A stretch of DNA of 64,000 nt from an uncultured Methanosarcinales archaeon (GTDB lineage: Archaea > Nanobdellota > Nanobdellia > Woesearchaeales > CAZKBD01): positions 289 to 64,288 of the forward strand of contig CAZKBD010000001.1 in assembly GCA_964550945.1 (NCBI GenBank). The letters are read 5' to 3'. The stretch's first letter is position 1. Each line of letters starts with the position of its first letter. The notes beneath the pieces are model-generated. The model did no database searches and was not told where the DNA came from. It saw only the letters and a program-made list of their open reading frames with translations. Of this stretch, positions 6,436 through 62,421 are shown piece after piece. The position numbers and the translations under genes are program-made.

Positions 6436-6510
6436 GCCTTTTTCTTTTGTTTTTACTTTTAAGTAACAAAATTAGAAAGATTTAAAAACAGATTAATATT
6501 CCTCTATCCT

Positions 6511-12363: not shown

Positions 12364-12606
12364 CTAAGCGCCAGCATCAGGAACAGCCTCCTCATTTATC
12401 CCCACTTTATAACAACTTCTCTCTGCGAGATTTGATGTACTAGATGCACTACTGTCTTTGTTGGTATCATCTTTATTAGGATTTTTGTCATCAGATTTTT
12501 CAGGATCGCAGCATTCGCCGCAGCAATCACAAGCAACTAAGAATATCAAAAGCAAAATTGATACTGTAAAACCCAATCTAATTAGGGCCCTTCCTAAATC
12601 TCCCAT
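12364..12606 (-). CDS. Cys-cluster lipoprotein paralog (LVAC lipobox, CDCCGECC)
   Basis: MGDLGRALIRLGFTVSILLLIFLVACDCCGECCDPEKSDDKN... Third member of the tandem family. Confidence 0.5.
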   Translation of the reverse strand: MGDLGRALIRLGFTVSILLLIFLVACDCCGECCDPEKSDDKNPNKDDTNKDSSASSTSNLAERSCYKVGINEEAVPDAGA

Positions 12607-21212: not shown

Positions 21213-21374
21213 ATGAGTGTCCAGATAAGGATAACCGTAAGCAAAGAAATTGATGAGCTTCTTTCTAAAGTAGCTAAAAAGCTTGGAAAAAAGAAGAGTA
21301 TGCTAGCCCGCGAACTGATGGAGCAAAAGATGTATGACCTGGAATTGATACAAAAAGGGCTAAAGGAAATATGA
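21213..21374 (+). CDS. Ribbon-helix-helix (CopG/Arc-like) small DNA-binding protein
   Basis: 53 aa: MSVQIRITVSKEIDELLSKVAKKLGKKKSMLARELMEQ... (beta-strand then two helices). The stop overlaps the ATG of the next gene (ATGA). Not in the ORF track because it is under 60 aa. Confidence 0.5.
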   Translation: MSVQIRITVSKEIDELLSKVAKKLGKKKSMLARELMEQKMYDLELIQKGLKEI

Positions 21375-23488: not shown

Positions 23489-23489
23489 G

Positions 23490-26400
23490 ATGAAAAAAAC
23501 ACTAACACTAGCAATGATTTACCTAGTGTTGATGCTTCCTGCCTATGTTTCTAATGTTTATGCGATTGACCGCAATATTAATAGCAGTTTCATTGGTAAT
23601 GATGATATCACAACAGGGAATTTTGGCAAAGTTACATCTATATCTGCTGAAAAAGTTGCTTCTAAAAATGGCCAGATTCTGCTTTTAAGCGCAGTCATTA
23701 ACAATCTAGAAGCTTATGGGCAAGATGGGATTAATGGCTACTTGAAAGCAGATGATCAGCTTACAGTAAAAGTTACAGCAGCTATTGACAGCGAGCCAAT
23801 AAATGAAGGGCAGCTTAAGATTGGGAATGTTAACTTCACAAGCTGTGTCGCTGCAATGGAAGGCTATGACTGCATCTTAGTTGCGCCTGCAACCGGCACA
23901 AGAAGGTTTTCAGGCTCTAATGAGTTTGCAGTTAATCTGTATAATAATCAAAGCAGGATAGTTGCAAGCATTAATGCCAATGTCAGGGTTGATGATAAAA
24001 GCCCTTCAATTAGCTCGTTTGCTGCGTCGCCAAAAATAGGAAATGCTAACAATATACTGCTTAATTACGCTCTGGAAGATTATGATTTTAGTGGCAGCAC
24101 AGCTTATTGCTCTGGCTTGAAGCGCATTGAATTCTATGAGAATGATCTGGCAGGAAATCTGTCTGGCACAACAGAGCTTGACAGCTCATGCACGATAACT
24201 GGCAGCTATAACTATAGCGCTGCAAGCGATGGAGATAAAAAAATATGTGCTATTGTATATGATGGTTTTGAGCAAGTTTCTTCAGTTGCCTGTGATAGTT
24301 TTAAAGTTGATAGTATTGCGCCTGAGATTTCTGATATTGTGATCTCTGACTTAAACAGCAGCATAATAACCCATATTAAAGACAGGACAGATGCCATTGT
24401 GAATGCCACCATTATTGGGGCTGACATAAACCAAAGTTCAGTTAAAGCTGATTTAAGGTCTCTCAACAATGAAAGCGCATATTCTGATAAAGCGCCTGGT
24501 TTATTCATAAACAGCAACAATAGTTTGACTGCCCTCTGGAGAGTTTGGATAAGAGCCAATGCTGATATAACCCCTCAGATAACAGTTAATGCAGTTGACC
24601 TTGCTGGAAATAATATAACCAAGACCTCAACTTTAAACACACTGTATTATGATAATGTTGCTCCTGTTGTTAGCTCGCTAACTACCGATATAGCCTATAA
24701 TGGAAGCTATTATGTTATATCTGGCCTGAATAATTTTTATGCTGATATTGTTGAAGATGGCGCTGGATTAGCTGAAGCGGTATTGGATATTCAAGATAAT
24801 TCTGTGATTGGCAACTGCAGTAATAACAAATGTTACTGGGAAAATATAAGCATAAGCGCTGGAACTGGCAGCATAACAGCAAAAGTCAGGGCTAAAGACA
24901 AGCTGGATAATAGCGCAGCTGAGTTTAGCGCAACACTTTTTGCAGATACGATAAGCCCTGTTCTTATTAGCGTGAATATATCATCAATTAGCGGCGCAAA
25001 TGATACAAGCCCTGGCTTCACAGCAACAGGAGACAAGATTTATGTTGTTGCCAGCTTTAGCGATGCAAACGGCATCTCAAATGCATATGCTGATTTCTCT
25101 AGCTTTGTTTCAGGAGCTGACCATGTTGCTGCAGACAGCTGCAAGGATGTGGGAAGAACAAAGCAATGCACATGGACAACCAGCTCAATTGACATTTCTG
25201 GCCATATCATCAGCGATATTATTTTCAGTCCAGTCGATAACATTGGTAATGTAGCTGGTATAACCCATCCTTTTGAATCCCTTGGCTATGATGAGGATCC
25301 TAATCCTAATTACTGGGCAAGCTCTGTTATTTGCACTCCAATGATGGTTGACAGGCAGGTTTCTGCATTGACTAACAGCAAGGTGTACTGCCATATCGCA
25401 TTAAGAAGCGCAGCTAAAGAGGTTAGAACTGTTGAGCTTGGCCTTTTAGGCTGCCAGGATATGCAGAATAATTCTCTTGCTTATGTTAGCGCTATTAATC
25501 TGTTAAACGCAGGCAATGGCAGTAGAAATCCATACTTGATGGTTGTTTTGAGATCAGATCCAATGCGGATTTCTAATCTGCAGTTTACCTGCTCGTTAGG
25601 CATTTTCTCAAGAACTAATGACTTATTGACAAAATTCCCTGAATTTGAGAATGTTACTGTAAATATTCAATTCTATAATATGCCTTTAGGTGAGATAAGC
25701 GACAATATTAAAGACAAGATAAAAGACGCAAAAGATTTCTCCTTCCTTTTAGGTGATTGGGTCGGAACAATGCAGAATATTCTCGGCTATGGCGAGAAGA
25801 TATGCAAATTGATTAATACTATTATGAAGATATATGGCGCAGTTGGTGCTGTTGCCTGGGCATTGAGTGGTAAGGAAGTTATTCCTATCTTAGGAGAAGC
25901 TGTAACTACGCCAAGGCAAGCAGTACAAACTGCCCAATCTGGTATGGGCGCTTTGAGCAAAGAAGGCTGGCAGAAATATGTTAATCAGTTCTGCAAATTC
26001 TTTTCATGCAGATTATTTTATGATGAGATGTGGGGAATAGGAAATACTCCAATTGGACAGTCATTAGGAAAATGGCAGCATACGGTTCTAAACACAGCAG
26101 ACTGGATTGCAGTTGGCGGATTCTTAAAAGGTGGTGGCGGAGGAAAGAGTAGTAGTGGAGAGAATAGTGCAACTAATCAACCCACAATAGAAAGTATACC
26201 CATTGGTGAGGAAAAGGTAGACATAAAAGTAATTGATCCAGAAAATATTGATATTCCGACAGCAGAAGTTGTTGCAACAATTACCGGTGCTGATGGTGCC
26301 ACACCTCCACCAGAAGAGGCAAGACTACCTCAACCAGAAGAGGCAAGACTAGATCCCTCTGCTGCACCTTCAGGAAGCAGCGGCGTAAGCCATGGTTTGC

Positions 26401-26999
26401 TTGAAAGCATTGGAATTGGTGGCGAGTATGGGGTCCATGCATGGGCAAATTCAAGAACCGGTTATGAAACTGTCATCAAAGATGGCGGTGTGTTAAACCC
26501 AAAAGACAGCATTGTAATTAGCACTCTAACATTATGCATCCCAGGCATTATCTATAATCTAAACAAACTAAGGCAGATACAATGCATGTATATTGATTGC
26601 ATGCAGAATTATGTTCAACAAGGGCTGCCATTAAAAGCATGCGAAGACCAGAAGCATTATGCAACATGCAAATATTGGTGGGGAGAAATATTCCAGCTAT
26701 TGCCGTTTACCGGGCTTTTGAATTTCTTTACAGGAATGATCAAGAATGTCTTGTCAAGCCCGCTAAATATAGTTGACGCTGTTATGGGTTTAGCTTGCAT
26801 GCCTTCTATAAAGGTGCCAAAAGGAGGGGTTTTTGCAAGCGGCTGTTTAGCGAATGATATTGCAGGATTGATATTTGACATCTGGTCTGATTTGGAAGGC
26901 ATGTTCACTAAGGATTATTGGAAATTCAAAGGCGGAGATTATTGCAGCAGGATTGATGATGTCAGCAGTAAAAAAGATTCAAAAGAGAAAGAAAAGTAA
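23490..26999 (+). CDS. Giant secreted protein (1169 aa), module A gene 2: Ig-like array, internal hydrophobic helices, Gly-rich linker, conserved Cys-containing core
   Basis: Signal peptide MKKTLTLAMIYLVLMLPAYVSNVYA. C-terminal block CIPGIIYNLNKLRQIQCMYIDC...ACEDQKHYATCKYWWGEIFQLL is homologous to CISGIYNRLQAIKNILGALQACLIQV...VCKELFSQWVCSLIWKVL in the 2017-aa protein. Confidence 0.65.
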   Translation: MKKTLTLAMIYLVLMLPAYVSNVYAIDRNINSSFIGNDDITTGNFGKVTSISAEKVASKNGQILLLSAVINNLEAYGQDGINGYLKADDQLTVKVTAAIDSEPINEGQLKIGNVNFTSCVAAMEGYDCILVAPATGTRRFSGSNEFAVNLYNNQSRIVASINANVRVDDKSPSISSFAASPKIGNANNILLNYALEDYDFSGSTAYCSGLKRIEFYENDLAGNLSGTTELDSSCTITGSYNYSAASDGDKKICAIVYDGFEQVSSVACDSFKVDSIAPEISDIVISDLNSSIITHIKDRTDAIVNATIIGADINQSSVKADLRSLNNESAYSDKAPGLFINSNNSLTALWRVWIRANADITPQITVNAVDLAGNNITKTSTLNTLYYDNVAPVVSSLTTDIAYNGSYYVISGLNNFYADIVEDGAGLAEAVLDIQDNSVIGNCSNNKCYWENISISAGTGSITAKVRAKDKLDNSAAEFSATLFADTISPVLISVNISSISGANDTSPGFTATGDKIYVVASFSDANGISNAYADFSSFVSGADHVAADSCKDVGRTKQCTWTTSSIDISGHIISDIIFSPVDNIGNVAGITHPFESLGYDEDPNPNYWASSVICTPMMVDRQVSALTNSKVYCHIALRSAAKEVRTVELGLLGCQDMQNNSLAYVSAINLLNAGNGSRNPYLMVVLRSDPMRISNLQFTCSLGIFSRTNDLLTKFPEFENVTVNIQFYNMPLGEISDNIKDKIKDAKDFSFLLGDWVGTMQNILGYGEKICKLINTIMKIYGAVGAVAWALSGKEVIPILGEAVTTPRQAVQTAQSGMGALSKEGWQKYVNQFCKFFSCRLFYDEMWGIGNTPIGQSLGKWQHTVLNTADWIAVGGFLKGGGGGKSSSGENSATNQPTIESIPIGEEKVDIKVIDPENIDIPTAEVVATITGADGATPPPEEARLPQPEEARLDPSAAPSGSSGVSHGLLESIGIGGEYGVHAWANSRTGYETVIKDGGVLNPKDSIVISTLTLCIPGIIYNLNKLRQIQCMYIDCMQNYVQQGLPLKACEDQKHYATCKYWWGEIFQLLPFTGLLNFFTGMIKNVLSSPLNIVDAVMGLACMPSIKVPKGGVFASGCLANDIAGLIFDIWSDLEGMFTKDYWKFKGGDYCSRIDDVSSKKDSKEKEK

Positions 27000-27146
27000 G
27001 ATGAATAAAAAGCATATTGTTTATAGTTAAAAAATAAGGGTCATAAACACCAAAAATTTAACAGTTAAAATGGAAGGCATATACGAAAAAGGGTTCAAGG
27101 AATTTTTGGAAGAGGGTATATCATCAGAAAAAAGAGAAAAACACAA

Positions 27147-27166
27147 TTGTCCAATATTATGGACAA
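27147..27166. promoter_or_regulatory. Inverted repeat TTGTCCA-N6-TGGACAA, 13 nt upstream of the HTH-MNT gene
   Basis: Perfect 7-bp arms, directly seen. Candidate autoregulatory operator. Confidence 0.35.
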
Positions 27167-27178
27167 TCATCCAAAAAA

Positions 27179-27709
27179 ATGGACAAGATAACTGAATTGT
27201 TTATGGAAGAGCCAGAGAAAGAGTTTCATGCTAGGGAGATCTCTAGGCTGGCTAAATTGTCACCTACCACCTCCTCTAAGTATCTTAACATTCTGCTTAG
27301 AAGAGGGATTGTCACATCCAGGAAGATGACCAATCTTGTGTTATTTAAGGCAGATACTGAAAATTTGAGCTATAAGGCTATGAAAAGGTCATACAATCTT
27401 CAAAGGCTGAATCAATCCGGTCTTATTAATCACCTTGTTGAAGAATATAATGAACCGGAGGCAATAGTGCTATTTGGCTCTTTTGATAAAGGCGAGGACT
27501 CAAAAAGGAGTGACATAGACCTTTTAGTTGTCACTCCACTAAAGAAAACAGTTGATGTTGCTTTGTTTGAAAAAAAACTAAAGAGGACTATCCAGATTTT
27601 TGTACATCCAAAAAAAGAGATTGAATCCATGAAGACTAAAAACAAAAGGTTGCTTAATAATTTAGTTAATGGGTCAGTGATTTATGGCTATTGGGAGGCA
27701 TTTAGATGA
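27179..27709 (+). CDS. wHTH-fused minimal nucleotidyltransferase (MNT)
   Basis: AIVLFGSFDKGEDSKRSDIDLLVV matches the GS-x9-13-DxD nucleotidyltransferase motif. N-terminal HTH. Confidence 0.75.
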   Translation: MDKITELFMEEPEKEFHAREISRLAKLSPTTSSKYLNILLRRGIVTSRKMTNLVLFKADTENLSYKAMKRSYNLQRLNQSGLINHLVEEYNEPEAIVLFGSFDKGEDSKRSDIDLLVVTPLKKTVDVALFEKKLKRTIQIFVHPKKEIESMKTKNKRLLNNLVNGSVIYGYWEAFR

Positions 27710-28113
27710 AATTTGATGATTTCATAACCAAAGGGATGGTAAGAAAGGCTTCAATTGATGAACAGCTAATCAAATCAATAACCGAAACCTCAGAATTAGA
27801 TCTGAGATTCTTAGATGGGCTTAAGATAGATAAGCTATCATCAAGGAAAATATTCACAAATTATTATGATGTCCTTAGAAGTATTTTAGAGGCGTGTGCA
27901 TTAAAAGCAGGATATAAGGTTTACAGCCACGAAGCTTTCACTTTTTTTCTTAAGGATGGTAGGGAAGAGGAACTAGCCAAGAAATTCGATAGGTTCAGGC
28001 ATATTAGAAATAAAATAAACTATTATGGGAAAGACATCTCCCCAGAAGAAGTAGCCCAATATAAAACTGACATAATCAAGCTGATCAATGAAATAAAATC
28101 TAAACTAAAATGA
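27706..28113 (+). CDS. HEPN-domain protein, partner of the MNT
   Basis: All-helical. DRFRHIRNKINYYG matches the HEPN R-x4-6-H-like region. ATGA overlap with the MNT gene. Confidence 0.6.
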   Translation: MKFDDFITKGMVRKASIDEQLIKSITETSELDLRFLDGLKIDKLSSRKIFTNYYDVLRSILEACALKAGYKVYSHEAFTFFLKDGREEELAKKFDRFRHIRNKINYYGKDISPEEVAQYKTDIIKLINEIKSKLK

Positions 28114-28247
28114 AGCAAGCTCAATCACTCAGCTCAGGAATCTTGTTCATGGTTATAGTCATGGCCATCTTCACCTTTGCAATGTTCGAGTCGGGGGATA
28201 AAATCACCGGGAATATGGTTAAAGTTAGCGGGATAGGTAACAAATGA
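28110..28247 (+). CDS. 45-aa TM micro-ORF, leader copy 1 (duplicate of the N-terminus of the 941-aa protein)
   Basis: MKQAQSLSSGILFMVIVMAIFTFAMFESGDKITGNMVKVSGIGNK. ATGA overlaps at both ends. Contains a 71-nt core identical to copy 2. Confidence 0.5.
   Translation: MKQAQSLSSGILFMVIVMAIFTFAMFESGDKITGNMVKVSGIGNK
28122..28192 (+). repeat. 71-nt leader core repeat, copy 1 (identical to 29212..29282; 3 mismatches to 31260..31330)
   Basis: caatcactcagctcaggaatcttgttcatggttatagtcatggccatcttcacctttgcaatgttcgagtc, read directly. Confidence 0.9.
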
Positions 28248-29203
28248 GAAAGCAACCAATAGAACTTGAGGGGTACAACCAAGTACTTAATGATATAAAA
28301 TTCTTGCTTGACAAAGCCAAAGCACAGGCCTATAAGGCTGTTGATAACATAAGGGTTCAAACATATTGGCAAGTAGGAGATAGGATTATAAGAGAAGAAC
28401 TTCAGCATAAGGAAAGAGCAGAGTATGGTAAAAAATTAATTGAAAATTTGGCTAAGGATTTGGGATTTGAAAAAAGATTGATTTTTGAAATAATCCAATT
28501 TTATAAGGTATACCCAATAGTGCACGCACTGAGTGCACAATTAAGCTGGACACATTATAACCTCTTAGTTCGAATAAATAATCGGGAAGAGAGGCAATTT
28601 TACGAGTCTCAAACAGTACAAAACGGATGGAGTACAAGGGAACTAGAAAGGCAAATAAAAAATCGCCTTTATTATGATGCTAAGAAGATAGGCAAATTAA
28701 TTTTGAATAAACCTTTGGATCTAGCAATAAAACCAGAAGACATCTTTAAAAATACTTATAACTTTGAATTCTTAGATCTAAAGTCAGAATACAAAGAAGA
28801 GGATTTTAAAAATGGATTATTGAATAAGTTAAAAAAATTCTTGCAGGAATTGGGCCCTGACTTTTTTGTTGGAAGGAGAGAAGTTCCAATACTTATTGCA
28901 GGCAATTATGATAAGGTTGATTTGGAATTATTTCATGCTGGGCTTATGTGTTATATCCTTGTTGAAGTCAAGGTAGAGCCATTTAAACATTCCCATGTCA
29001 GCCAGATGTACTCTTACTTAAACTGGTATAAGGAAAATAAATTGAAGAAAGGGCAGCGTTTACCCATTGGTTTAATAATATGCAAATCTAAGGATGAAGA
29101 GACTGTGCATTACGCACTTGGCGAATTGAGAAAAGAGATATTTGTATCTGAATATAAAGTTAAGTTGCCATCTGAAAAAGAAATAGTAAAAAGATTAAAA
29201 TGA
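28244..29203 (+). CDS. DUF1016/YhcG-like PD-(D/E)xK nuclease-family protein
   Basis: C-terminal VDLELFHAGLMCYILVEVKVEPFKHSHVSQMYSYL matches the YhcG-type D...E-x-K nuclease core with the conserved GQ(M/L)xFY tail. Confidence 0.75.
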   Translation: MRKQPIELEGYNQVLNDIKFLLDKAKAQAYKAVDNIRVQTYWQVGDRIIREELQHKERAEYGKKLIENLAKDLGFEKRLIFEIIQFYKVYPIVHALSAQLSWTHYNLLVRINNREERQFYESQTVQNGWSTRELERQIKNRLYYDAKKIGKLILNKPLDLAIKPEDIFKNTYNFEFLDLKSEYKEEDFKNGLLNKLKKFLQELGPDFFVGRREVPILIAGNYDKVDLELFHAGLMCYILVEVKVEPFKHSHVSQMYSYLNWYKENKLKKGQRLPIGLIICKSKDEETVHYALGELRKEIFVSEYKVKLPSEKEIVKRLK

Positions 29204-29337
29204 AACGCGCGCAATCACTCAGCTCAGGAATCTTGTTCATGGTTATAGTCATGGCCATCTTCACCTTTGCAATGTTCGAGTCTGGGAATAAGATTACTAG
29301 GAATATTGTAGGGATTAGTGGGATGGATAACAAATGA
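29200..29337 (+). CDS. 45-aa TM micro-ORF, leader copy 2
   Basis: MKRAQSLSSGILFMVIVMAIFTFAMFESGNKITRNIVGISGMDNK. ATGA overlaps with both neighbours. Confidence 0.5.
   Translation: MKRAQSLSSGILFMVIVMAIFTFAMFESGNKITRNIVGISGMDNK
29212..29282 (+). repeat. 71-nt leader core repeat, copy 2
   Basis: Identical to 28122..28192. Confidence 0.9.
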
Positions 29338-29858
29338 GAGAAGATAACTTGCCGAAGAATAAGGCCAATGGAGTACAAGCTAAAGAGGGATATAAAAAAA
29401 CAGAGAGCAACAAACTGGAATGGTGCTGCAACAAAAAAAATGGCATAACCTTAATTGAGCCTAATGACAATCTAAGTGATGAATATATGAAGGAGTCTGA
29501 CAAAACACTGGACTCATTAGACCTAATAAACGATAAATGGGGATTGATAATGGGATACTACGCGTGTTACAATGCATTGTATTCCCTAATGATGAAAATG
29601 GGCATAAAGTCTGAGATACACGATTGTTCGATTGAGCTGATGAAGATGATCCCCCAATTTTCTGATGATGACATTAACTTTATTAAGAATCTAAAAAAGG
29701 ATAGGATTGATGCGCAATACTACCTAAAAGATAAAGTCCTTGACGATAAAGGCAAAGTGAAAGAATTTGTGCTGAAATGCAAACAAATTAAGGGTGAACT
29801 GGACACTCCTTCAATAAGAGAAAAACTGCGCAGAATTATAAAAGGTGATAAAAATTAG
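29334..29858 (+). CDS. Helical HEPN-like partner protein
   Basis: All-alpha, precedes an MNT gene, has a KDRIDAQYY region. The canonical Rx4-6H His is absent, so this is a HEPN-like call only. Confidence 0.4.
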   Translation: MREDNLPKNKANGVQAKEGYKKTESNKLEWCCNKKNGITLIEPNDNLSDEYMKESDKTLDSLDLINDKWGLIMGYYACYNALYSLMMKMGIKSEIHDCSIELMKMIPQFSDDDINFIKNLKKDRIDAQYYLKDKVLDDKGKVKEFVLKCKQIKGELDTPSIREKLRRIIKGDKN

Positions 29859-29862
29859 ACAT

Positions 29863-30438
29863 ATGTCTAAAAAAATAGACATAGTATCCTTGTTCACCAA
29901 AGACTACTCTAAAAGGATGTCTGGGAGGGAAATTGCGAGGCTATTGAACACAAATCACCAGACAGCATTAAACAATCTAAATGAGCTTGTTAAAGAAGAC
30001 ATCATAAAATATGAATTAAAAGGAAGAAATAAAGAATACTCATTAAACTTGAATAGCCTAAAAACTAACTTAATGGCGGTTATGTCAGAGGTTAAACTAT
30101 CCTTAGATAGCTTACAAAATAAAGAGCTGAAGATTGTCATTGAAGAAATCGTGCCTAACACTGAAGCGATAATACTGTTTGGATCATTTGCTTCCTCAAG
30201 CCATGATAAGGACTCTGATATGGACTTGATTTTAGTCGGAAAATCTGATAAAGAAAGCATAAGCAAAATCATAAAGAGGCACAACAGGGAGATAAATGCA
30301 GAATATGCAAGTTTTGAGGATTTTGCAGGCTCTTTGAACAAGAAAAATGCTTTGGCAATAGAGATAGCCAAAAACCACCTCTTTTATGGAGACATATCCA
30401 GGATTACTGGCATCTTGTTAAAATGGCACTTAAGATGA
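29863..30438 (+). CDS. wHTH-fused minimal nucleotidyltransferase (MNT)
   Basis: AIILFGSFASSSHDKDSDMDLILV. ATG at 29863, 5 nt after the partner stop. The ORF track begins at an upstream GTG. Confidence 0.75.
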   Translation: MSKKIDIVSLFTKDYSKRMSGREIARLLNTNHQTALNNLNELVKEDIIKYELKGRNKEYSLNLNSLKTNLMAVMSEVKLSLDSLQNKELKIVIEEIVPNTEAIILFGSFASSSHDKDSDMDLILVGKSDKESISKIIKRHNREINAEYASFEDFAGSLNKKNALAIEIAKNHLFYGDISRITGILLKWHLR

Positions 30439-30578
30439 AAACAAAAAGATCACCATCGCTGAAAGGAGGACTGATGTTTATTTTGATAGCGATGGCTGTA
30501 TTTGGGTTTGTGATGTTCGAGTCTGGGAATAAAATCATTGGTAATAGGGTTAAGGTTAGCGAGATGAAATGGATATGA
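30435..30578 (+). CDS. 47-aa TM micro-ORF, leader copy 3 (diverged)
   Basis: MKTKRSPSLKGGLMFILIAMAVFGFVMFESGNKIIGNRVKVSEMKWI. ATGA overlaps with both neighbours. Confidence 0.45.
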   Translation: MKTKRSPSLKGGLMFILIAMAVFGFVMFESGNKIIGNRVKVSEMKWI

Positions 30579-31075
30579 AAAGGATACTGTTTGATACAAA
30601 CATATATGGGAGATTAATTGAAGAACCTGACGTTGTACTAAGAATTGCAAAACACATTCCATCTTATTTTGTTGTATATGGGATCACCATTATTCGAAAT
30701 GAATTGAGGTCATTATCCAAAGAGGCGAAATTGGACGGAAAGAGCAAAAGGATTCTTCTTTTAAATGTTTATGACAGCTTCATAAAGAAAGAAAACCATA
30801 ACCTTAAAATTACAGGTATTATAGAAATTATTGCGCATGACTATTTTGTGGAGTACAAAAAAGCAGGCGGCTCATTATCCTTAAAAGAGGTAATAAATGA
30901 TTTTCGAATAGTTGCGTGCGCTTCTGTACACAATCTAGACATAGTGGTGTCAGAAGACAATAAGAGCATGCTGTCTTCGCATTCATTAAAATCATATAAC
31001 CAAGTAAATAAGAGTAATCAACTGAAGAATCCAGAATTTGTATCATTCAATAAATTTAAGGAGGCCTATCTATGA
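30575..31075 (+). CDS. PIN-like domain protein
   Basis: MKRILFDTNIY... with spaced acidic residues (D7, RNEL, SEDN) in PIN order. Start taken at the second ATG to give an ATGA overlap with leader copy 3. Confidence 0.5.
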   Translation: MKRILFDTNIYGRLIEEPDVVLRIAKHIPSYFVVYGITIIRNELRSLSKEAKLDGKSKRILLLNVYDSFIKKENHNLKITGIIEIIAHDYFVEYKKAGGSLSLKEVINDFRIVACASVHNLDIVVSEDNKSMLSSHSLKSYNQVNKSNQLKNPEFVSFNKFKEAYL

Positions 31076-31241
31076 TTACAAGCCAATCTAATAAATCTCT
31101 GAATCCCAGCCCTGAATTTTGGATCTTTATTAGCTTCCTTAATCTTCTTTATAAGGCTTTTAAATTCAGCGGTGTCAGCAAAGGATTTTTGTTTCATAGT
31201 ATCAGTAATAATGAAACTGTATATATAAATTTTTCGTTAAA

Positions 31242-34067
31242 ATGAAACACAAAAGATCACAATCACTCAGCTCAGGAATCTTGTTCATAGCTGTAGTCAT
31301 GGCCATCTTCACCTTTGCAATGTTCGAGTCTGAGAATATTACTGGAATGTCTGTTTCTGGAGATGTTAATTCTAATAGATTTAACCTTTATTTCAGCAGC
31401 AGCGACCCAATTAGTAAAGCTGGAGAAACGTATGGCACAGATAATAAAGTTAATGGTTATTTATTGCAGCAGGGTAATGAAAAGTATTGGTTAACCAATT
31501 CTATTCCTGATATAGGGTTTGCAGTTTTACACTGGAATAAAGAAAAGGGTAAGTGGGGTACTGGAACATTAAATTATGACAGAGTGGGCCCATTTAATAG
31601 TCAAATAGATTCCTATAAGACCTTAGAGGATTATGATGCTAATTCTGGTTATACTAAAGAGCCAATTCAGACTAAAGACACGTATGATAGCAGTAAGTAC
31701 GACCCTAATACAAAAGGAACGGTTCTTCCAAATTGGATTAAGGATGAGTCCCCAACACCACCACCTACGCCCACGCCTGCACCTGCTGCCGCGCCACCAG
31801 CTGCTGCTCCTGCTGTTGTATCTTGGACTGCTGGCACAGATCCTAGTACAGATGGTAACTTAAATGGGTGGGAATATAACTATAATCCTACTACAAAAAC
31901 CCAAGAAGTTGAGTATGAAGGTCAAAAGATGAGTGATATTAACATTCCAGAAGGAGCAATTGCTCGACAGAGACAGTCTGACGGGAGTTACAAATATACC
32001 CAATACAAAAGTGGAAACTGGGTTGATAGTAGTTCTACTCTTCCAACTCCAACTGCTACTGTTAGCACTAAAAGAATTACTGTGGCTAATATTAAATCAG
32101 TTGAAGGACAACAAGCGAACTGTGTTGAAGCTGTTAAGTGTGCAGCGCAAAACGCAGGCATATCTATTAAGGGAACAAAAGGGAGCACTATGTTTCCAGA
32201 AGTTGGAACCCAAGTAGCAGCTAGCTCTCCTAGCAGTTTAGATCTATCAAAATTAGATAAGTCGCAAGTGTACTATGCTGGTTTTGGGCAACCTTATACA
32301 GAAAGTACTACAAATCCAGATGGAATTGATGTTAGGCATACAGGATTAATTTATTGGGATGGTTCAACAAACCAATGGATGTGGTCGTCAGGAAGTGAGA
32401 ATAGCAAAGGTGAAAAAACTCAAGTTAAATCTGTACCTCTAACAGAATATGCCAACGGGTGGGTTAAGGGTTATGATTCAGCCTTTCCTAAAATAGCTAT
32501 CGACCCAAATAAAGCAAAATTTTATGTCTATGACCAATCAAAAGCGGGTAAACCTACAACAACCCCAGTCCCACCTACTGAAGAGAAAAAAACCATTGAA
32601 GAGATTGCAAAAGAGTTTGGTGCAACTATTGTCAAGCCAAAAGAAGGAGCCGCTGCTATTGGCCCTGGAGCAAAAGAGGAAAAACCACCTGAATCATACG
32701 TTGTTATACCCTTGTTAGATGGTAGCACAATGGTTGTGGATGAGAATAAATTTGATGAATTATGGGCTAATTTCGAAAAAAACGGTATAGATTCACTTAA
32801 GGTAATAAAGAATGAAAAATTCGCCATTCTTACCAAACAACAAGCTGATGCTTATCAGCGAGGAGGAATAATAAGTGAAAAGAATGGGCAAACCGTAGTC
32901 ACAGAAACCATTTCATCTTCAGCCAAAAAAACGCAAACTACAACTGAAACAATTTATTATACTGACCATGCAACAAGTGAAAAGGTCAAAACAACCTACA
33001 ACAAAAAGTTTGACAAATATGCACCGGAAGAATTAACAGGCAAAGGTGGAACGCCAATCGACACAGAAGTCACAGAAATACAAACAACACAAACAACATT
33101 GGATGCCAATAATCGAGTAACTTCTACATCAGTTGAAACAAAAAGAATGAAAGACGGCAAAGAAGTTGATTACACAAAAACAGAGGAAAGATCCCATTAC
33201 GATGAAAAAGGAAAGAAGGTGATTGATTCTAAAGCAGCTACAAAGATGGAAGATGGAGTAAAAGTTAAAACAGTTTACAGCCTAAAGGACGGAAGCCCTG
33301 AAGATGTTTTATTTTGGGATGAAACAAAGAAGCAATTTATTCATGATGAAAATCTGCTCAAAGCAAAGCAGCAAAACTACAAAGCTGGAACTAAATTGAA
33401 GAATGTTATGGCTGCTCTGCAAACTCCCGGAGTTGGGAGGTTTGTTGGATTATTCATGGATGATGACGCTTTTGCTGAATGGAGAGAAGGAGTTGATAAA
33501 ATCTTCTGCGAAACAGTGCTCCTAGGCGGAGCTGACTGCTGGACTTCAAAGCTATGCTCATCCTATTCTGACATGGAAGGTAAAAGCTATCTTAATATCC
33601 AGTCCCCATACGGGATGCTAGAGCTTGCTGCCCATATTGAAGGCCAAAGAACTTCCATGATTTATGGCAATGAAACTGGAATCCAGATGGAATACATCTA
33701 CAAGATATCAGCGATGGCCAGAAACCCTGCAAACAGCAATAAGGAGATGAAATTCAATATAGTCCTGTCTGGAGACAGGACAATAGAGCTTTATGAAAAT
33801 GACATCACTTTAGAAGAAGGAAATTCATTCCAAAGAACAGGCTCTGCAATAATTGTCCAGTACAGCCAGCATCTTTACAATAAGATATGCATCAAATTCC
33901 AGGATTCTATTGATGCTGGTGGAGGAAGATATTTCGATGAGGTTTGCAATAAGATCACTGAATATACAGGCGGGCCTATGAGTTATGAAGAAGCTGTAAC
34001 ACAAACCACTCAAAGCGGCGGTGATGGCTCTGATAACGGGCTGAACCAGGCAGAAAGGCTTATTTAG
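31242..34067 (+). CDS. Large surface protein (941 aa) carrying the same N-terminal TM leader, a Pro/Thr/Ala linker and a C-terminal Cys-containing domain
   Basis: MKHKRSQSLSSGILFIAVVMAIFTFAMFESENITG... then PTPPPTPTPAPAAAPPAAAP linker. TATA-like ATATATAAAT upstream. Confidence 0.65.
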   Translation: MKHKRSQSLSSGILFIAVVMAIFTFAMFESENITGMSVSGDVNSNRFNLYFSSSDPISKAGETYGTDNKVNGYLLQQGNEKYWLTNSIPDIGFAVLHWNKEKGKWGTGTLNYDRVGPFNSQIDSYKTLEDYDANSGYTKEPIQTKDTYDSSKYDPNTKGTVLPNWIKDESPTPPPTPTPAPAAAPPAAAPAVVSWTAGTDPSTDGNLNGWEYNYNPTTKTQEVEYEGQKMSDINIPEGAIARQRQSDGSYKYTQYKSGNWVDSSSTLPTPTATVSTKRITVANIKSVEGQQANCVEAVKCAAQNAGISIKGTKGSTMFPEVGTQVAASSPSSLDLSKLDKSQVYYAGFGQPYTESTTNPDGIDVRHTGLIYWDGSTNQWMWSSGSENSKGEKTQVKSVPLTEYANGWVKGYDSAFPKIAIDPNKAKFYVYDQSKAGKPTTTPVPPTEEKKTIEEIAKEFGATIVKPKEGAAAIGPGAKEEKPPESYVVIPLLDGSTMVVDENKFDELWANFEKNGIDSLKVIKNEKFAILTKQQADAYQRGGIISEKNGQTVVTETISSSAKKTQTTTETIYYTDHATSEKVKTTYNKKFDKYAPEELTGKGGTPIDTEVTEIQTTQTTLDANNRVTSTSVETKRMKDGKEVDYTKTEERSHYDEKGKKVIDSKAATKMEDGVKVKTVYSLKDGSPEDVLFWDETKKQFIHDENLLKAKQQNYKAGTKLKNVMAALQTPGVGRFVGLFMDDDAFAEWREGVDKIFCETVLLGGADCWTSKLCSSYSDMEGKSYLNIQSPYGMLELAAHIEGQRTSMIYGNETGIQMEYIYKISAMARNPANSNKEMKFNIVLSGDRTIELYENDITLEEGNSFQRTGSAIIVQYSQHLYNKICIKFQDSIDAGGGRYFDEVCNKITEYTGGPMSYEEAVTQTTQSGGDGSDNGLNQAERLI
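31260..31330 (+). repeat. 71-nt leader core repeat, copy inside the 941-aa gene 5' end
   Basis: 68/71 identical to copies 1 and 2. Confidence 0.85.
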
Positions 34068-34135: not shown

Positions 34136-34828
34136 ATGATTGAGACATTAATCACATCCCAAACAAGAAGAAAATTGCTGAAGATCTTTTTGAACAATGT
34201 AGAGAAAAGATTCTACATTAGGGAGCTCACTAGAAAAACAAATGAGAATATAAACTCTATAAGAAAAGAATTGAGCAGCCTTGAAAAGATAGGCCTTTTG
34301 AAAACAGAAAGAGTGGCAAATCTCCAGTATTTCTTTGCTAACAAGGACTTTAAGATATTCAAGGAACTCAAGTCAATATTCATAAAGACAGACCCTGTAA
34401 ATGATCTTATTCTAAAGATAGAAAAAAAGGCCAAGGATAAATTTGGGAAGGAGCTTAGCTCGATTGTTTTGTTTGGCAGCCAGGCAAGATATGAGGCCAG
34501 GGAATATTCTGATGTTGATATATTAGTCATCTGCAAAACAGCCCAAAAGGACTGGAGGAAAAGAGATGACACAATTGTAGAGATTGAAAAAGCAGGCTTT
34601 GAGTTTGGCATTCCTGTGCATATCGAACTATTGACTGAAGAAGAATTTACCTTCTCAGTAAATGAAGGAGCGCCTTTATTATTCGGCTTAGCCGAGAACT
34701 TCAGGTTAGTTTATGACAATGGTTATTTTCAGGATGCAATCAGCCTATTCAGGAAAAATATGGCAAAGTGGGGAGCTAAAAAGATCAAAAATGTCTGGGA
34801 GGTGCCTGAGCTTGCAATCAAAGTATAG
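34136..34828 (+). CDS. wHTH-fused minimal nucleotidyltransferase (MNT)
   Basis: SIVLFGSQARYEAREYSDVDILVI. Confidence 0.75.
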   Translation: MIETLITSQTRRKLLKIFLNNVEKRFYIRELTRKTNENINSIRKELSSLEKIGLLKTERVANLQYFFANKDFKIFKELKSIFIKTDPVNDLILKIEKKAKDKFGKELSSIVLFGSQARYEAREYSDVDILVICKTAQKDWRKRDDTIVEIEKAGFEFGIPVHIELLTEEEFTFSVNEGAPLLFGLAENFRLVYDNGYFQDAISLFRKNMAKWGAKKIKNVWEVPELAIKV

Positions 34829-35246
34829 GGATATCTGCAATGCATTGATCATAGATGCAAGAGAGGATTTAAAGGCAGCTAAAGTTTTGATGGAAAAAGG
34901 AATTTTCAGCAAATCTGTCTTTCATTCACAGCAGGCCGTTGAGAAATTCTTAAAGTCAGTATTAGCCTTAAACAGCATAATAATCACTGATGAGCATAAA
35001 GTTTCTGATAAGTTCAGCTTGTTATTTTCAAGATTCAATAGCCTGGATAAGGTCGCTGAAGAAGCTAAATACTTGGAAAGGCACGGCCTGAAATCACGCT
35101 ATCCTTTGTTTGGCGACCCAATAAGGCCAATATGGATCCCAAGCGAAGAATACAAAAAAGAAGATTCGGAAAAGTCGCTTAAAAAAGCTAGATTTGTGGA
35201 AGAAAAAATAATTAACTTTTTAAAGGAAAAATACAATATTCAATAA
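34812..35246 (+). CDS. HEPN-domain partner protein
   Basis: Helical. DICNALIIDAREDLKAAKVLMEKGIFSKSVFHSQQAVEKFLK is typical of a HEPN N-terminal helix pair. The start is uncertain: the ORF track starts at 34713 inside the MNT gene, and a TTG at 34812 is proposed. Confidence 0.5.
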   Translation: MQSKYRDICNALIIDAREDLKAAKVLMEKGIFSKSVFHSQQAVEKFLKSVLALNSIIITDEHKVSDKFSLLFSRFNSLDKVAEEAKYLERHGLKSRYPLFGDPIRPIWIPSEEYKKEDSEKSLKKARFVEEKIINFLKEKYNIQ

Positions 35247-35416: not shown

Positions 35417-37318
35417 ATGTTTAACAAGAAAGCTCAACTGACTATTTTCATAATTATTGGCTTAATAATTTTAATTGCAATAGGCGCATATCTTTACTAC
35501 AATAGCCTGGCAATAGGGGAGCCTGAGATATCAACAGAAGAGACAGAGCCAGTAAGGAGTTTTGTTGAGCAATGCATTAAAGATGCTGCGCAGGAAGCTA
35601 TTGATACTGTTGGCTTTAACGGAGGCTATATCACGCTACCGGAAAATATCGAAAAAAACCCTAAAAGTTACTTAAAAATATCTCCACTAGTTGATGTAAA
35701 GCTCCCTTACTGGTGGTATGATGGGGTTATGTCTATCCCTACAGCAGATTTTATAAGAAGCCAGATATCGCAATATGTCAAAGACCAGTTAAAGATTTGC
35801 GTTGCTGATTTTGAAAGTTTCGAAGACGAATTCAGCGTAAGGGAATTAGGAGAGATAACAGCCTCAACACAATTTGACAAGAATGATGTGGCTGTTAAAG
35901 TAAAATATCCCTTATTAGTAAATAATAAGGTAGGCGACACAAGAGTGAAGCTAAAATCAGATTATAATGTTAAGGTGCCAGTAAGGCTGGAAACAGTATA
36001 CAACCTTGCAAAGATGATTATGGAAACAGAAGACTCAGAATGGTTTTTAGAGGAAAAAACTGTTGATCTGATGGCTTTAGATGGCTCTATCCCATTGACT
36101 GGTGTTGAGGTCACTTGCTCAAAAAAGATATGGGAAGTGCCAAAAGTAAGGAGTAAACTAAAAAGATTGTTAGAAGTAAACCTTCCTTATATAAGGATCA
36201 AAAACACAGGCTATGATGAAAATATTTATGTCCCAAACCCTTTTTCAAAAACAGAGGTGTTCAATGAAAGCTATTATTTCTACCATTATATCTGGGATGT
36301 TAAAGCATTGGAAGACAAAAACATTCACATCAGCTTTAGCTATGATCAAAACTGGCCAATGGAGTTCTATGCAAGGCCAAGCAATGGCCAGATAATGAAA
36401 TCAAATGCCCAGAAAGGCCAGGAGATGCTTTCATGGTTCTGCCTGCATATATGGCATTTTACCTATGACGTAAAATATCCTGCCATGGCAACCATCACAG
36501 ATGAGAAAACAGAAGAGCATGACAGCTATACTTTTAGTTTTCCTTTTAAGGTAAACATAGACCATAACAAGCCAGCAAGATACAATTCCGGCTCAAATAT
36601 CCTGGAAGGAACAGAGAAATTGACAGATGAGGAATTCTGCAGCGACACCAGCCATCAGATCACAATATTCACAGTAAGCAATAGCTCAAAAGCAATTGAG
36701 GATATTGCTGATGTTAACTTGACGTTTGTATGCGGAGCATTCCAATGCGATTTAGGCGCAAGCAAATGGATAAGCTTTGGAGCGGCAGCTGGCTTGCAAA
36801 AACCAATGCCCTATTGCGTTTTAGGGATTATAAAAGGAACAAAGAAAGGCTATGCAGATGCTCAGATGTTCATACAGGCAGAAGAGGACAAAAGTTATAC
36901 CCTCCATATGGCTCCTATAAAAGAGCTATATAATTACACTGTTGTAAAACATTCCTCATTAAGCCCTGCAGCAGCGCAAAATCTTGAAAGTGATGAAAGG
37001 GCATTAATCATGATAAAAACTCCGCTTGGCAACACATACGGCCTTTATCCAAACAATGAAAGCTCTCCAATTATATTATCAGCTGAAGAAGATAAGGCCT
37101 ATGATGTGGATATTTATTTAATAAGCGGCGAAGATATAATTGGAGGCTATAAGGCGCAATGGAGTGTAAACTCAAAAGAGCTTGACAAGGCAAAATCAGC
37201 AAGGTTCCATGTCATAGAGCAGGAGCCCAGGCAGACAGATGAGATGAAAAGATATGAATATATTGCTGAGATCGAAAAGCATTCAGAGCAAATACCATCA
37301 ACAGAGTTGATAAGATGA
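35417..37318 (+). CDS. TM-anchored surface protein (633 aa), module B gene 1
   Basis: MFNKKAQLTIFIIIGLIILIAIGAY anchor. AAGAGG RBS. Paralog of 21371..23488. Confidence 0.65.
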   Translation: MFNKKAQLTIFIIIGLIILIAIGAYLYYNSLAIGEPEISTEETEPVRSFVEQCIKDAAQEAIDTVGFNGGYITLPENIEKNPKSYLKISPLVDVKLPYWWYDGVMSIPTADFIRSQISQYVKDQLKICVADFESFEDEFSVRELGEITASTQFDKNDVAVKVKYPLLVNNKVGDTRVKLKSDYNVKVPVRLETVYNLAKMIMETEDSEWFLEEKTVDLMALDGSIPLTGVEVTCSKKIWEVPKVRSKLKRLLEVNLPYIRIKNTGYDENIYVPNPFSKTEVFNESYYFYHYIWDVKALEDKNIHISFSYDQNWPMEFYARPSNGQIMKSNAQKGQEMLSWFCLHIWHFTYDVKYPAMATITDEKTEEHDSYTFSFPFKVNIDHNKPARYNSGSNILEGTEKLTDEEFCSDTSHQITIFTVSNSSKAIEDIADVNLTFVCGAFQCDLGASKWISFGAAAGLQKPMPYCVLGIIKGTKKGYADAQMFIQAEEDKSYTLHMAPIKELYNYTVVKHSSLSPAAAQNLESDERALIMIKTPLGNTYGLYPNNESSPIILSAEEDKAYDVDIYLISGEDIIGGYKAQWSVNSKELDKAKSARFHVIEQEPRQTDEMKRYEYIAEIEKHSEQIPSTELIR

Positions 37319-46867: not shown

Positions 46868-47907
46868 GAAATAAATCAACAAAGCGGATAAAAGTTGGAA
46901 ATGCGCTTATAGGAGGCAATGCAGATATTACTGTCCAGTCTATGACAAACACAGATACAAAGAACATCAACGCAACAATAGGCCAGATAAAAAGGCTGGA
47001 AGAAGCTGGTTGCGAGATCATCAGGTTAGCTGTTCCTGATATGGAATCAGTAAGTGCCTTAAAAGAGATTAAAGATAACATTAACATTCCATTGGTTGCT
47101 GACATTCATTTTGATTATAGGTTAGCAGTTGAAGCTGCAAAGTATGTAGACAAGATAAGGATTAATCCAGGCAATATTGGAAATAAGATTCCAGAGGTTG
47201 TTAAAGCTGCAAAAGAACATTCCATCCCGATAAGAGTTGGCATTAACTTAGGCTCTTTAGAAAAAGATATCGAGAAAGAATTCGGCCTTACAGCAAAAGC
47301 AATGGTTGAGTCTGCTTTAAGAAACATCAAAATTTTAGAAGATTTGGATTATTATGATATTGTGGTTTCGTTAAAGGCAAATGATGTTGTAAGGACAATA
47401 GAAGCAAATAAATTATTTTCAAAAATTAGCAACTATCCTCTGCATTTAGGTGTTACAGAATCAGGCTCCAGCTTTTCCGGCACAATAAGCTCAGCAGTAG
47501 GGATTGGAAGCTTGCTTGCAGAAGGCATTGGAGACACAATAAGGGTTTCCTTATCAGCTGATCCTGTTGACGAAGTTAAAGCTGGATGGCAGATATTGAA
47601 GGCACTAAAATTAAGAAAGAGGGGCATTGATATAACAAGCTGCCCAACATGCGCAAGAGCTCATTTTGATGTAATAAAAGTTACAAAAGAATTAGAGGAG
47701 AAAACATCTGGAATAAAAAAACCATTGCATATAGCAATTATGGGCTGTGAAGTCAATGGGCCAGGAGAAGCAAAGGAAGCAGATATTGGTGTTGTGGGGG
47801 GCAAAGGAGAGCATCTTATTTATAAAAAAGGAGCAATAATTAAAAAATTGAAAGAAGATGATATAATCGATTCTGTTATGGAAGAGATTGATAGGGTTAT
47901 TCTTTAG
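46864..47907 (+). CDS. ispG: 4-hydroxy-3-methylbut-2-enyl diphosphate synthase (GcpE)
   Basis: ITSCPTCAR...IAIMGCEVNGPGE Fe-S Cys ligands. ATGA overlap with dxs. Confidence 0.9.
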   Translation: MRNKSTKRIKVGNALIGGNADITVQSMTNTDTKNINATIGQIKRLEEAGCEIIRLAVPDMESVSALKEIKDNINIPLVADIHFDYRLAVEAAKYVDKIRINPGNIGNKIPEVVKAAKEHSIPIRVGINLGSLEKDIEKEFGLTAKAMVESALRNIKILEDLDYYDIVVSLKANDVVRTIEANKLFSKISNYPLHLGVTESGSSFSGTISSAVGIGSLLAEGIGDTIRVSLSADPVDEVKAGWQILKALKLRKRGIDITSCPTCARAHFDVIKVTKELEEKTSGIKKPLHIAIMGCEVNGPGEAKEADIGVVGGKGEHLIYKKGAIIKKLKEDDIIDSVMEEIDRVIL

Positions 47908-61999: not shown

Positions 62000-62071
62000 C
62001 TTAACCTCCACCCAATAATTGACTAATTATAGACGTAACTATTTAAAACTTTCTCAAAAACTGCCTTAAGA

Positions 62072-62419: not shown

Positions 62420-62421
62420 GT

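Follow-up and report, generated by a model that had tools for sequence, protein, structure and literature searches.

Unrelated toxin-antitoxin and defense genes separated by copies of a surface-protein leader module in a woesearchaeal genome

Archaea of the DPANN group have very small genomes and rely on contact with a host, made through surface proteins that are large and variable; to our knowledge, how they gain and lose defense genes is poorly understood. Here, we describe a locus of a woesearchaeon, a DPANN archaeon sampled in groundwater metagenomes, at which mutually unrelated toxin-antitoxin (TA) and defense genes alternate with micro-open reading frames (micro-ORFs), termed leaders, that copy the start of the adjacent surface-protein gene. 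The locus lies in a 64-kb stretch of one genome (contig CAZKBD010000001.1), hereafter the window. Scans for recombinases covered the window, and those for further repeat copies covered the window and a comparison set of 126 fetched loci (about 1.4 Mb of related DNA).

Genes at the locus

The array occupies about 4 kb of the + strand, 5' of a variable surface-protein gene. It opens with a winged helix-turn-helix (wHTH)-MNT nucleotidyltransferase gene (27179 to 27709) and the gene for its HEPN-like, 135-amino-acid (aa) partner (27706 to 28113), whose TGA stop falls within the ATGA of the first leader (L1, 28110 to 28247; 45 aa, MKQAQSLSSGILFMVIVMAIFTFAMFESGDKITGNMVKVSGIGNK; public gene call P0002). 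Cassette 1 carries a DUF1016 nuclease gene (28244 to 29203) and is followed by the second 45-aa leader (L2, 29200 to 29337). Cassette 2 holds two genes, one for a 174-aa protein (29334 to 29858) and one for a second wHTH-MNT (29863 to 30438, with an alternative GTG start at 29845) that stops within the ATGA of the diverged, 47-aa third leader (L3, 30435 to 30578; longest ORF from 30423; public gene call P0003). Cassette 3 encodes a 166-aa, PIN-like protein (30575 to 31075; 168 aa in the longest ORF, from 30569). Beyond a spacer region (31066 to 31245; 166 nucleotides [nt] between the PIN-like gene and the next) comes the gene for the 941-aa surface protein (31242 to 34067), of which residues 1 to 45 form leader copy L4. 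The order and strand that a preliminary description of this DNA had given for its nine-gene chain agree with both the ORF listing and the raw sequence. Each cargo unit directly precedes the next leader, two-gene units are pairs of an MNT and a partner, and the cassette spacings are 1,090, 1,241, and 807 nt. Because independent assemblies of four other samples (L001, L002, L080, and L081) contain the array at 99.95% identity or higher, it is not a product of mis-assembly. Groundwater data sets that contain the locus are SRR2177950, SRR2177951, SRR2177954, JGI 3300009031, 3300009285, and 3300009296, and ERZ5996431. The array showed no similarity to plasmid or phage records, and the window gave no match in Rfam.

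Profile searches identified much of the cargo. The MNT fold (GS...DxD motif) scored above the Pfam NTP_transf_2/Polbeta threshold for the proteins starting at 27179, 29845, and 34136, the last lying downstream of the surface-protein gene, and matches of the MNTs to NCBIfam MntA_antitoxin fell under the cutoff of that family. Both MNTs previously claimed for the array were thereby upheld: that at 27179 matches Pfam Polbeta (1.1e-10) and NTP_transf_2 (5e-9), a weak HTH profile, and PADLOC PDC-M05A (6e-21), that at 29863 matches NTP_transf_2 (4e-8) and PDC-M05A (1.5e-15), and each carries an N-terminal wHTH. The nuclease was likewise correctly described as a DUF1016 PD-(D/E)xK enzyme, with Pfam matches to DUF1016_N and YhcG_C (4e-40 and 5e-36) and a PADLOC match to PDC-S02 (4e-91). 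The 135-aa partner at 27706, which has an ATGA overlap at each end, matches PADLOC PDC-M05B (1.5e-6) and has no Pfam HEPN match. For the 174-aa protein at 29334, the only HEPN signal was a subthreshold Pfam hit (E = 0.09), with no support from PADLOC, NCBIfam, or the PDB, and the PIN-like protein had no match in Pfam, NCBIfam, PADLOC, PHROGs, or PDB sequences. The earlier labels "HEPN-like" (for the 174-aa protein) and "PIN-like" are therefore tentative, motif-level readings, as neither a profile library nor PDB sequences confirmed them. A single-sequence AlphaFold model of the PIN-like protein was unusable (pLDDT of 48) and was discarded. Downstream of the surface-protein gene, a further wHTH-MNT (34136 to 34828; NTP_transf_2, 8e-9) is paired with a HEPN protein (34713 to 35246; Pfam HEPN, 6e-21) with no leader; among the MNT partners, this HEPN protein alone has a significant Pfam HEPN match. 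Elsewhere, homologues of the cargo genes occur without leader-type ORFs beside them.

A palindrome with an 11-bp stem (ACAATTGTCCAATATTATGGACAATCAT) lies at 27143 to 27170, just 5' of the start of the first wHTH-MNT gene, and could plausibly serve as an operator through which the chain is autoregulated. The spacer contains a 57-aa ORF on the + strand (31072 to 31245) with an ATGA at each end and a 43-aa ORF on the - strand (31066 to 31197, with its ATG at 31197), for which no family match was found. A TATA-like TATATATAAA at 31220 to 31229 is 23 to 32 nt from the start of the 43-aa ORF; its distance to the + strand ATG of the 941-aa gene is just 12 nt. The former spacing fits a leaderless archaeal transcript of the 43-aa ORF, and the 57-aa ORF may be the shadow of a real gene on the - strand. 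The promoter and terminator scan used bacterial models and is uninformative for an archaeon.

Repeat structure of the leaders

The three micro-ORFs (45 to 47 codons) reproduce the initial ~45 codons of the 941-aa gene. Repeat and pattern searches found the four leader copies where they had been reported, with the reported 71-nt core at 68 to 71 of 71 positions: the core of L1 (28122 to 28192) is identical to that of L2 (29212 to 29282) and agrees with that of L4 (31260 to 31330) at 68 of 71. The L3 core (30453 to 30523) has diverged (68% over 100 nt), yet is clearly homologous in both DNA and protein. Halves of the core found a match in 0 of 100 shuffled sequences. Alignment of the copies with their flanks, which the preliminary description had recommended, delimited a repeat unit of about 163 nt, comprising the whole micro-ORF and ~23 nt upstream (L1 and L2 are 83% identical), with the 71-nt core inside it and divergent DNA on both sides.

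The repeat is confined to this locus. All four copies in the window belong to the array, and no other was found in the window or the fetched loci, which speaks against the possibility that it is a common genome-wide element. A leader profile used in a word-indexed search of 5.8 billion proteins matched only the four micro-ORFs of this population, and a degenerate core pattern (ATGGCNNTNTTYNNNTTYGNNATGTTYGARTC) had no match in metagenome_contigs, genome_contigs, or viral_contigs, collections that evidently lack the source samples.

Divergence among the copies is mosaic. Between L1 and L2, the proportion of differing synonymous sites (pS) is 0.07 in the core but 0.58 in the tail, with further differences in the first four to five codons; because of this difference between core and tail, the L1/L2 core has been homogenized or recently exchanged, while the cargo-linked flanks are old. 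The L4 core differs from that of L1 and L2 at 3 positions, that of a fifth leader (L5, described below) differs from L4 at 8, and that of L3 differs at many. In the hydrophobic core, L3 has a ratio of nonsynonymous to synonymous differences (pN/pS) of ~0.37 to 0.41 relative to the other copies, a constraint possibly inherited from full-length genes, and the pN/pS of the tails (0.34 to 0.83) reflects weak constraint, on very few sites.

Nothing in the leaders resembled an integron recombination site. Folding of L1, L2, and L3 as DNA on both strands gave no hairpin (z of -1.19 to +1.10 versus shuffles), no inverted repeats were found inside or flanking the leaders, terminal inverted repeats included, and the copies do not conserve a GTTRRRY motif. 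Among the window ORFs scanned (110 aa or longer), none encoded a domain of an integrase, transposase, or recombinase. Given leaders without hairpins and 64 kb in which no recombinase was detected, the array is not an integron, and its earlier designation as integron-like fails in the strict sense.

Junctions and putative expression

Four-nucleotide ATGA overlaps join seven of the eight junctions from the first MNT gene to the PIN-like gene, with L3 starting at 30435 and the PIN-like gene at 30575. Both starts are in-frame ATGs, and 30435 is also used in the public gene call P0003; given these starts, every cargo-to-leader and leader-to-cargo junction is a 4-nt ATGA. Elsewhere in the window, 3 of 29 same-strand junctions are of this type (Fisher P = 8.5e-5), and even with longest-ORF starts, the array retains five of eight (P = 0.006), in agreement with the ATGA overlaps noted earlier. 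The cargo stop codons sit in the start motif of the leaders, TTAA(A/G)ATGAA. A cargo-frame stop codon lies just upstream of each cargo ATG (e.g., GG TAA CAA ATG at the junction of L1 and DUF1016), and leader-cargo fusion by frameshift was rejected for this reason.

Translational coupling at ATGA overlaps is established in archaea (PMC6728339). We read the chain as one operon and infer its cotranscription. Since each cargo stops in the ATGA of the next leader and each leader in that of the next cargo, the micro-ORFs are probably translated and would relay ribosomes along the chain through termination-reinitiation, with the leader peptide a by-product, not the purpose. The uniformity of the ATGA chain suggests selection for expression by this route. 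Gene callers predicted the leader micro-ORFs in every assembly.

Origin of the leader module

The word-indexed search recovered only the 941-aa protein itself, and an exhaustive HMMER search with it revealed a family of 387 representatives (E of 1e-3 or less), all matching through residues ~727 to 935. The shared part is a C-terminal domain of ~200 aa in proteins of 200 to 3,000 aa. The family is unnamed and unannotated; its Cys-containing C-terminal domain is conserved, and its middle parts are hypervariable (window gene and P0066 to P0214). A leader-type N-terminal module can be aligned in more than 50 members and consists, in order, of a basic end, (S/P)SL..G, ~20 hydrophobic residues, E/Q, and (K)ITG(N)xVK(V)(S/T)GM. 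Two related types occur, ...ITGNxVKV(S/T)GM and ...NNITANVxKE...LNEGWY. The module appears to be a signal-like, signal/anchor module, and the recurring (S/T)GM motif could be a signal for processing or sorting.

The micro-ORFs correspond exactly to this module and stop three codons past the SG(M/I) motif. Since their tails (...KITGNMVKVSGIGNK) are nearer the family consensus than the continuation of the 941-aa protein itself (...ENITGMSVSGDVN), the leader is, on these alignments, a module conserved at the N terminus throughout a large family of DPANN surface proteins and more than a duplicate of the start of the present gene. The leaders do match the 5' end of the 941-aa gene, as described earlier, but the family-wide character of the module had been missed.

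Polymorphism among co-occurring strains

A second haplotype was recovered from two samples by two assemblers (L004, JGI 3300009031, and the archaeal part of L003, ENA ERZ5996431). Up to position 31269, it is 99.1 to 99.5% identical to the window, with a few scattered differences. Past this point come 10 differences within leader 4; where the window has the 941-aa body, this haplotype has a fifth micro-ORF of 45 aa (MKHKRSQSLKSGILFIIIVMAIFTFAMFESGYKITANMIEGIAKK), followed by an ATGA and a gene with an AlbA_2 domain. The haplotypes therefore diverge inside a leader, the second adding a leader and an AlbA_2 gene, as expected from the earlier proposal that cassette variation would be bounded by the repeat. 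A search with the AlbA_2 fragment for sequence extending this haplotype found no identical full-length protein.

Other parts of the array vary as well. The AlbA_2 sequence also occurs, at 99.4% identity over 161 nt, in contig L118, where its 5' end differs and it is preceded by an MNT and a remnant of DUF1016; given this near identity in another context, cargo moves between contexts in this community. Contig L082 carries a different, divergent allele of the MNT gene at 29863, which departs from the window sequence ~40 nt past the gene start. Near 29025, an A-run has lost 1 nt in the independent assemblies L001 (at ~5245) and L002 (at ~2970), which frameshifts DUF1016 there; the window copy is intact, and this cargo is thus polymorphic for inactivation in the population. 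The population is a mosaic, with one breakpoint exactly inside a leader.

Two assembly features belong here. The left 4.1 kb of L003 (1 to 4126) was considered as a second location of the cassettes and rejected, having 51% GC versus 34% and encoding a bacterial bL27. This low-coverage contig, which also encodes PAS/HisKA and response regulator proteins in that part, joins bacterial to archaeal DNA, and its left part is most likely an assembly chimera. The assemblies of L001 and L002 both end at 31984, within the 941-aa gene, and L080 reads through; the shared end may reflect strain heterogeneity in the gene body.

The site in related genomes

Related loci were fetched by means of two paralogous neighbors of the array (26% identity), encoding proteins of 705 aa (at 21371) and 633 aa (at 35417), whose best matches all come from metagenome-assembled genomes of Woesearchaeota/Nanoarchaeota. 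They reveal a conserved cluster comprising a gene for a pilin-like protein of ~700 aa, one for a giant protein of ~1,000 to 1,200 aa, a variable family gene, a second gene for ~630 aa, and a giant gene. By position, the middle gene of L059, L069, L120, L121, and L123 is orthologous to the 941-aa gene. In L059 and L069, the middle gene (25 to 27% identical to the 941-aa protein at the C terminus) directly abuts the giant gene, and in the closer relatives L120 and L121, which have the leader-type N terminus, the junction is likewise empty. In L126, the upstream gene adjoins the family gene without an array. Every relative examined has a single leader module only. The comparison with related genomes that had been proposed as a check thus returned shared flanking genes and a missing array (L059, L069, L120, and L121), and these relatives, together with the second haplotype, are at odds with a fixed gene order without variation.

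In two other lineages, the same site is occupied by different genes. The closest relatives found (L123 to L125; flanking genes 43 to 48% identical in aa) carry an MNT and a different DUF1016 (32% identical to that of the window) at exactly the site of the array, with HicBA and PIN_3 TA pairs downstream, and L119 has an MNT and a partner immediately in front of the family gene. Because these loci bear other TA/defense genes there, the site 5' of the family gene is a recurrent landing place for such genes. Flanks are shared and cassettes are different or absent among relatives, as in a hot-spot islet. Since L120 carries the downstream MNT-HEPN pair (34136 to 35246) at the same position, at 57% and 70% aa identity, this pair is an older insertion common to the window and L120.

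Two candidates from this comparison were rejected. A 40-aa ORF in front of the L123 family gene has a 14-nt exact match to the leader, but it scored E > 10 against the family profile. The 86% nucleotide identity between L123 and the window at the 3' end of the giant gene was considered as a recent recombination tract; its pS of 0.455 indicates conservation instead. The neighbors themselves form a duplicated two-gene module that is conserved across Woesearchaeota (window 21371 to 26999 and 35417 to 43368; L009, L017, L018, L023, L027, L059, and others). It consists of a gene for a protein of ~650 to 700 aa with a class III signal-like start, KK(G/A)Q(I/L)T(V/I)FII, followed by one for a giant surface protein, and its two copies flank the variable family gene.

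How the array may have formed

The explanation that we favor, with a probability of about 0.5, is that this is an array at an insertion hot spot, shaped by homologous recombination among the leader copies, with translational coupling as its mode of expression. It sets out from features that were directly observed, namely, the repeat structure and its locus specificity, the array-free relatives, the haplotype switch within a leader, the mosaic divergence, and the ATGA architecture. A defense/TA gene island would have accreted directly 5' of a hypervariable surface-protein gene, with each cassette delimited by a copy of the initial ~135 nt of the gene, a stretch that would encode the N-terminal signal/anchor module. 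The leader copies would serve as portable homology: recombination between direct repeats, within one genome or with DNA of co-resident strains, could excise, reinsert, delete, or exchange cargo, and each event would regenerate one leader fused to the surface-protein gene, with leader-only ORFs upstream. In a Campbell-type crossover in the core, the variable 5' codons would stay with the end of the preceding cargo, including the stop in the ATGA, the tail would travel with the start of the following cargo, and the core would be held in common, which predicts the leader mosaic that is observed. We infer that the recombination is homologous rather than site specific; the breakpoints sit in homologous sequence, and no mobility genes were found in the cassettes.

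Several points weigh against this explanation. Homologous recombination accounts for shuffling once two leaders exist but not for the first duplication, and it leaves the exact ATGA start and end of unrelated cargo unexplained. Only one alternative haplotype was recovered; its contigs end 34 to 246 nt into the AlbA_2 cargo, and within that reach, the AlbA_2 cassette showed no leader on its far side. Junctions that would mark circles or deletions were not observed. Breakpoints also lie outside leaders (at the MNT allele of L082 and the AlbA_2 5' end of L118), so the leader is not the sole crossover point. The 11-nt ATGTTCGAGTC is shared without change by the five leaders, even at positions that are synonymous in the diverged L3, and could mark a specific site instead of plain homology, and as the window represents 64 kb of a larger genome, a recombinase may act in trans. 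Finally, all of the evidence comes from one population.

The best placed of the alternatives, which we nevertheless regard as unlikely, is that the leaders are passive relics. Ancient truncation of a family gene would have left a stub that was duplicated in tandem, with the intervening DNA replaced or decayed, and the micro-ORFs would be nonfunctional and the repeats without a continuing role. The shared end point and related tails of the stubs are consistent with such a single origin, as are the weak or absent constraint on the tails (pN/pS of 0.34 to 0.83), the decay of cargo in part of the population (the DUF1016 frameshift), and the restriction of the array to one known population. Relics would not be expected, however, to show live polymorphism exactly inside a leader or a core homogenized relative to the tails. 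Moreover, all four stubs keep an open frame of 45 to 47 codons with an ATGA at both ends despite a tail pS of 0.3 to 0.6, and the intervening genes are unrelated, intact ORFs, not decayed bodies of paralogues.

Rather more doubtful is the bolder proposal that the leader has a dual purpose, as a recombination site embedded in coding sequence that takes up and stacks promoter-less defense cassettes 5' of a surface-protein gene and as a translated launch-pad ORF for termination-reinitiation. The preliminary description had already raised a recombination site in coding sequence that separates cassettes. To that extent the data agree, as the repeats bound unrelated cargo, are locus specific, and contain the haplotype switch, but the earlier likening to an integron fails in the strict sense. 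If true, the dual-purpose leader would make the array a functional integron analogue in DPANN archaea without attC hairpins or an IntI-type integrase.

A site-specific system seems improbable to us. Here, the leader would be an att site for a recombinase encoded elsewhere, integrase-less cassettes would have accreted in tandem, and the copy in the 941-aa gene would restore the target. Repeated site-specific integration classically leaves copies of a gene end as direct repeats in tandem; the 71-nt identity block is sharp, with divergent DNA immediately on either side, and the invariance of ATGTTCGAGTC points the same way. TA-rich archaeal integrons and clusters of attC sites lacking integron-integrases (CALINs) also exist, including in Nanoarchaeota (PMC9668308). 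In this array, however, neither a recombinase domain in the scanned window ORFs nor an inverted repeat or hairpin in the leaders was found, the core is not identical among copies, and the element was absent from every other genome or metagenome searched.

We give still less credence to the possibility that the micro-ORFs are functional small membrane proteins, that is, stand-alone N-terminal modules acting with the defense genes or the surface protein and kept for their product. Each micro-ORF is a whole module with a basic end, one transmembrane helix, and the ITGNxVKVSG motif, the hydrophobic core of L3 appears constrained, and the micro-ORFs are consistently called as genes. Yet no stand-alone homologue was found outside the population in the 5.8-billion-protein search or the fetched loci, cargo homologues elsewhere do without such ORFs, and the core constraint may be inherited from full-length genes, with tails poorly constrained.

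Export of alternative toxin domains by the leader, as in the orphan tips of Rhs/contact-dependent inhibition (CDI) systems, has very little to recommend it: although nuclease-type domains are among the cargo and alternative modules follow repeats of a conserved segment much as in orphan modules (PMC3967940, PMC3482391), the cargo genes are separate, complete ORFs whose cargo-frame stop bars fusion unless a shift occurred in the last two codons, the MNT genes are of antitoxin type and not immunity genes, the repeat is a 5' start and not a 3' core, and the C terminus of the 941-aa protein is a conserved, non-toxin family domain. A miniature inverted-repeat transposable element (MITE)-like element with ATGA target duplication was rejected for want of terminal inverted repeats and dispersed copies.

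Implications and other features of the window

In this locus, defense and TA genes stack at a hot spot beside a surface-protein gene and are bounded by that gene's own start. Should recombination at the coding repeat be confirmed, the array would represent a simple, integrase-free route to cassette arrays and an example of micro-ORFs kept mainly for passing ribosomes along an operon. A further outcome is the definition of a large and unannotated family of DPANN surface proteins in which an N-terminal module and a C-terminal domain are conserved.

Elsewhere in the window, the surface protein of 2,017 aa (37315 to 43368) has Ig-like domains and a C-terminal glucosaminidase (peptidoglycan hydrolase) domain, which suggests that this DPANN archaeon might attack or attach to a bacterial cell wall. 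An apparent bacterial-type methylerythritol phosphate (MEP) isoprenoid pathway cluster lies on the archaeal contig at 44978 to 55850: Dxs (44978 to 46867) and IspG/GcpE (46864 to 47907) were confirmed by Pfam, and after IspG come Dxr-, IspD-, IspE-, and IspH-like ORFs, a polyprenyl synthase, and a geranylgeranyl reductase-like gene, judged on N-terminal sequence only. Three small paralogous ORFs (11448 to 11924, 11977 to 12186, and 12364 to 12606) have a lipoprotein-like start and a CSGCDCCGECC motif, and direct repeats of 60 to 125 nt occur at 61086 to 62915.

Two of the fetched loci have repeats of their own. A Hainich groundwater contig (L105, 740 to 4204) contains four copies of an intergenic repeat of ~100 nt, with a possible fifth near 4052 to 4204, that ends in a hairpin (GAACATAAC-nnnn-GTTATGTTC). 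Its cassettes encode a membrane protein, a 128-aa ORF, a possible (unconfirmed) TA pair, and a wHTH-MNT with a partner, and it looks like an integron/CALIN-like array bearing the same kind of MNT module. In L085, an intergenic consensus, CCAAAACCTTTAAATA(...), precedes several genes (1533 to 1590, 2327 to 2385, 3360 to 3383, 4420 to 4438, and 6474 to 6533) and is probably a strongly conserved promoter with a TFB recognition element (BRE) and TATA box.

Relationship to known systems

Our literature searches turned up no account of cassettes that have translated copies of a neighboring gene's N-terminal module between them, in line with the initial impression that the organization is not a described system. 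Genome-wide repeats of the MITE or repetitive extragenic palindromic (REP) type differ from the leaders, which number only four in the window, lie at one locus, and lack terminal inverted repeats. Type VII HEPN-MNT TA systems (PDC-M05) resemble the three wHTH-MNT genes beside small helical partners, with their matches to PDC-M05A/B, and HEPN-MNT pairs are typical mobile TA cargo of archaeal genomes. This likeness covers the cargo only and not the array, and two of the three partners have no significant HEPN profile match.

Integrase-less cis-mobilizable elements (CIMEs) accrete in tandem with integrative and conjugative elements (ICEs) at att sites that overlap the end of a gene; SXT, for example, occupies the 5' end of prfC. 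As in the present array, direct repeats of the gene end separate the inserts, and the gene stays intact owing to the adjoining copy, which replaces its 5' end. Here, in contrast, no integrase was detected, the cassettes measure only 0.8 to 1.2 kb, the repeats are nonidentical, and the displaced copies are open ORFs of equal length that are coupled to the cargo.

In the orphan modules of Rhs/CDI systems (PMC3967940, PMC3482391), fragments of a gene for a large surface or secreted protein are likewise reiterated beside alternative modules, and homologous recombination between fragments alters what is expressed. The present array is a mirror image of these, with the 5' end repeated in place of a 3' core, and its cargo consists of cytoplasmic TA/defense genes and not of a toxin tip with its immunity gene. 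Because the cargo is not fused to the leader and forms separate, complete ORFs, the earlier comparison with polymorphic toxins does not hold.

Archaeal integrons and CALINs, including those of Nanoarchaeota, carry many TA cassettes (PMC9668308). They share with this array co-oriented, short cassettes of one or two TA/defense genes, a repeated separator of ~60 to 140 nt, variable content, and a position downstream of a common upstream region. The leader differs in having neither R''/L''-L'/R' inverted repeats nor a single-strand hairpin, in the lack of an IntI in the window, and in being a translated sequence homologous to the N terminus of the neighboring gene.

The minimal mobile elements of Neisseria (PMC3787668) have conserved flanks and strain-specific, whole-gene cassettes, often of TA or restriction type; their cassettes, like these, lack mobility genes, and their exchange is ascribed to homologous recombination in the flanks. 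In the woesearchaeal array, the homology is instead an internal coding repeat of ~71 to 135 nt. Because this repeat is reiterated between the cassettes, they stack in tandem through exact ATGA junctions and do not replace one another.

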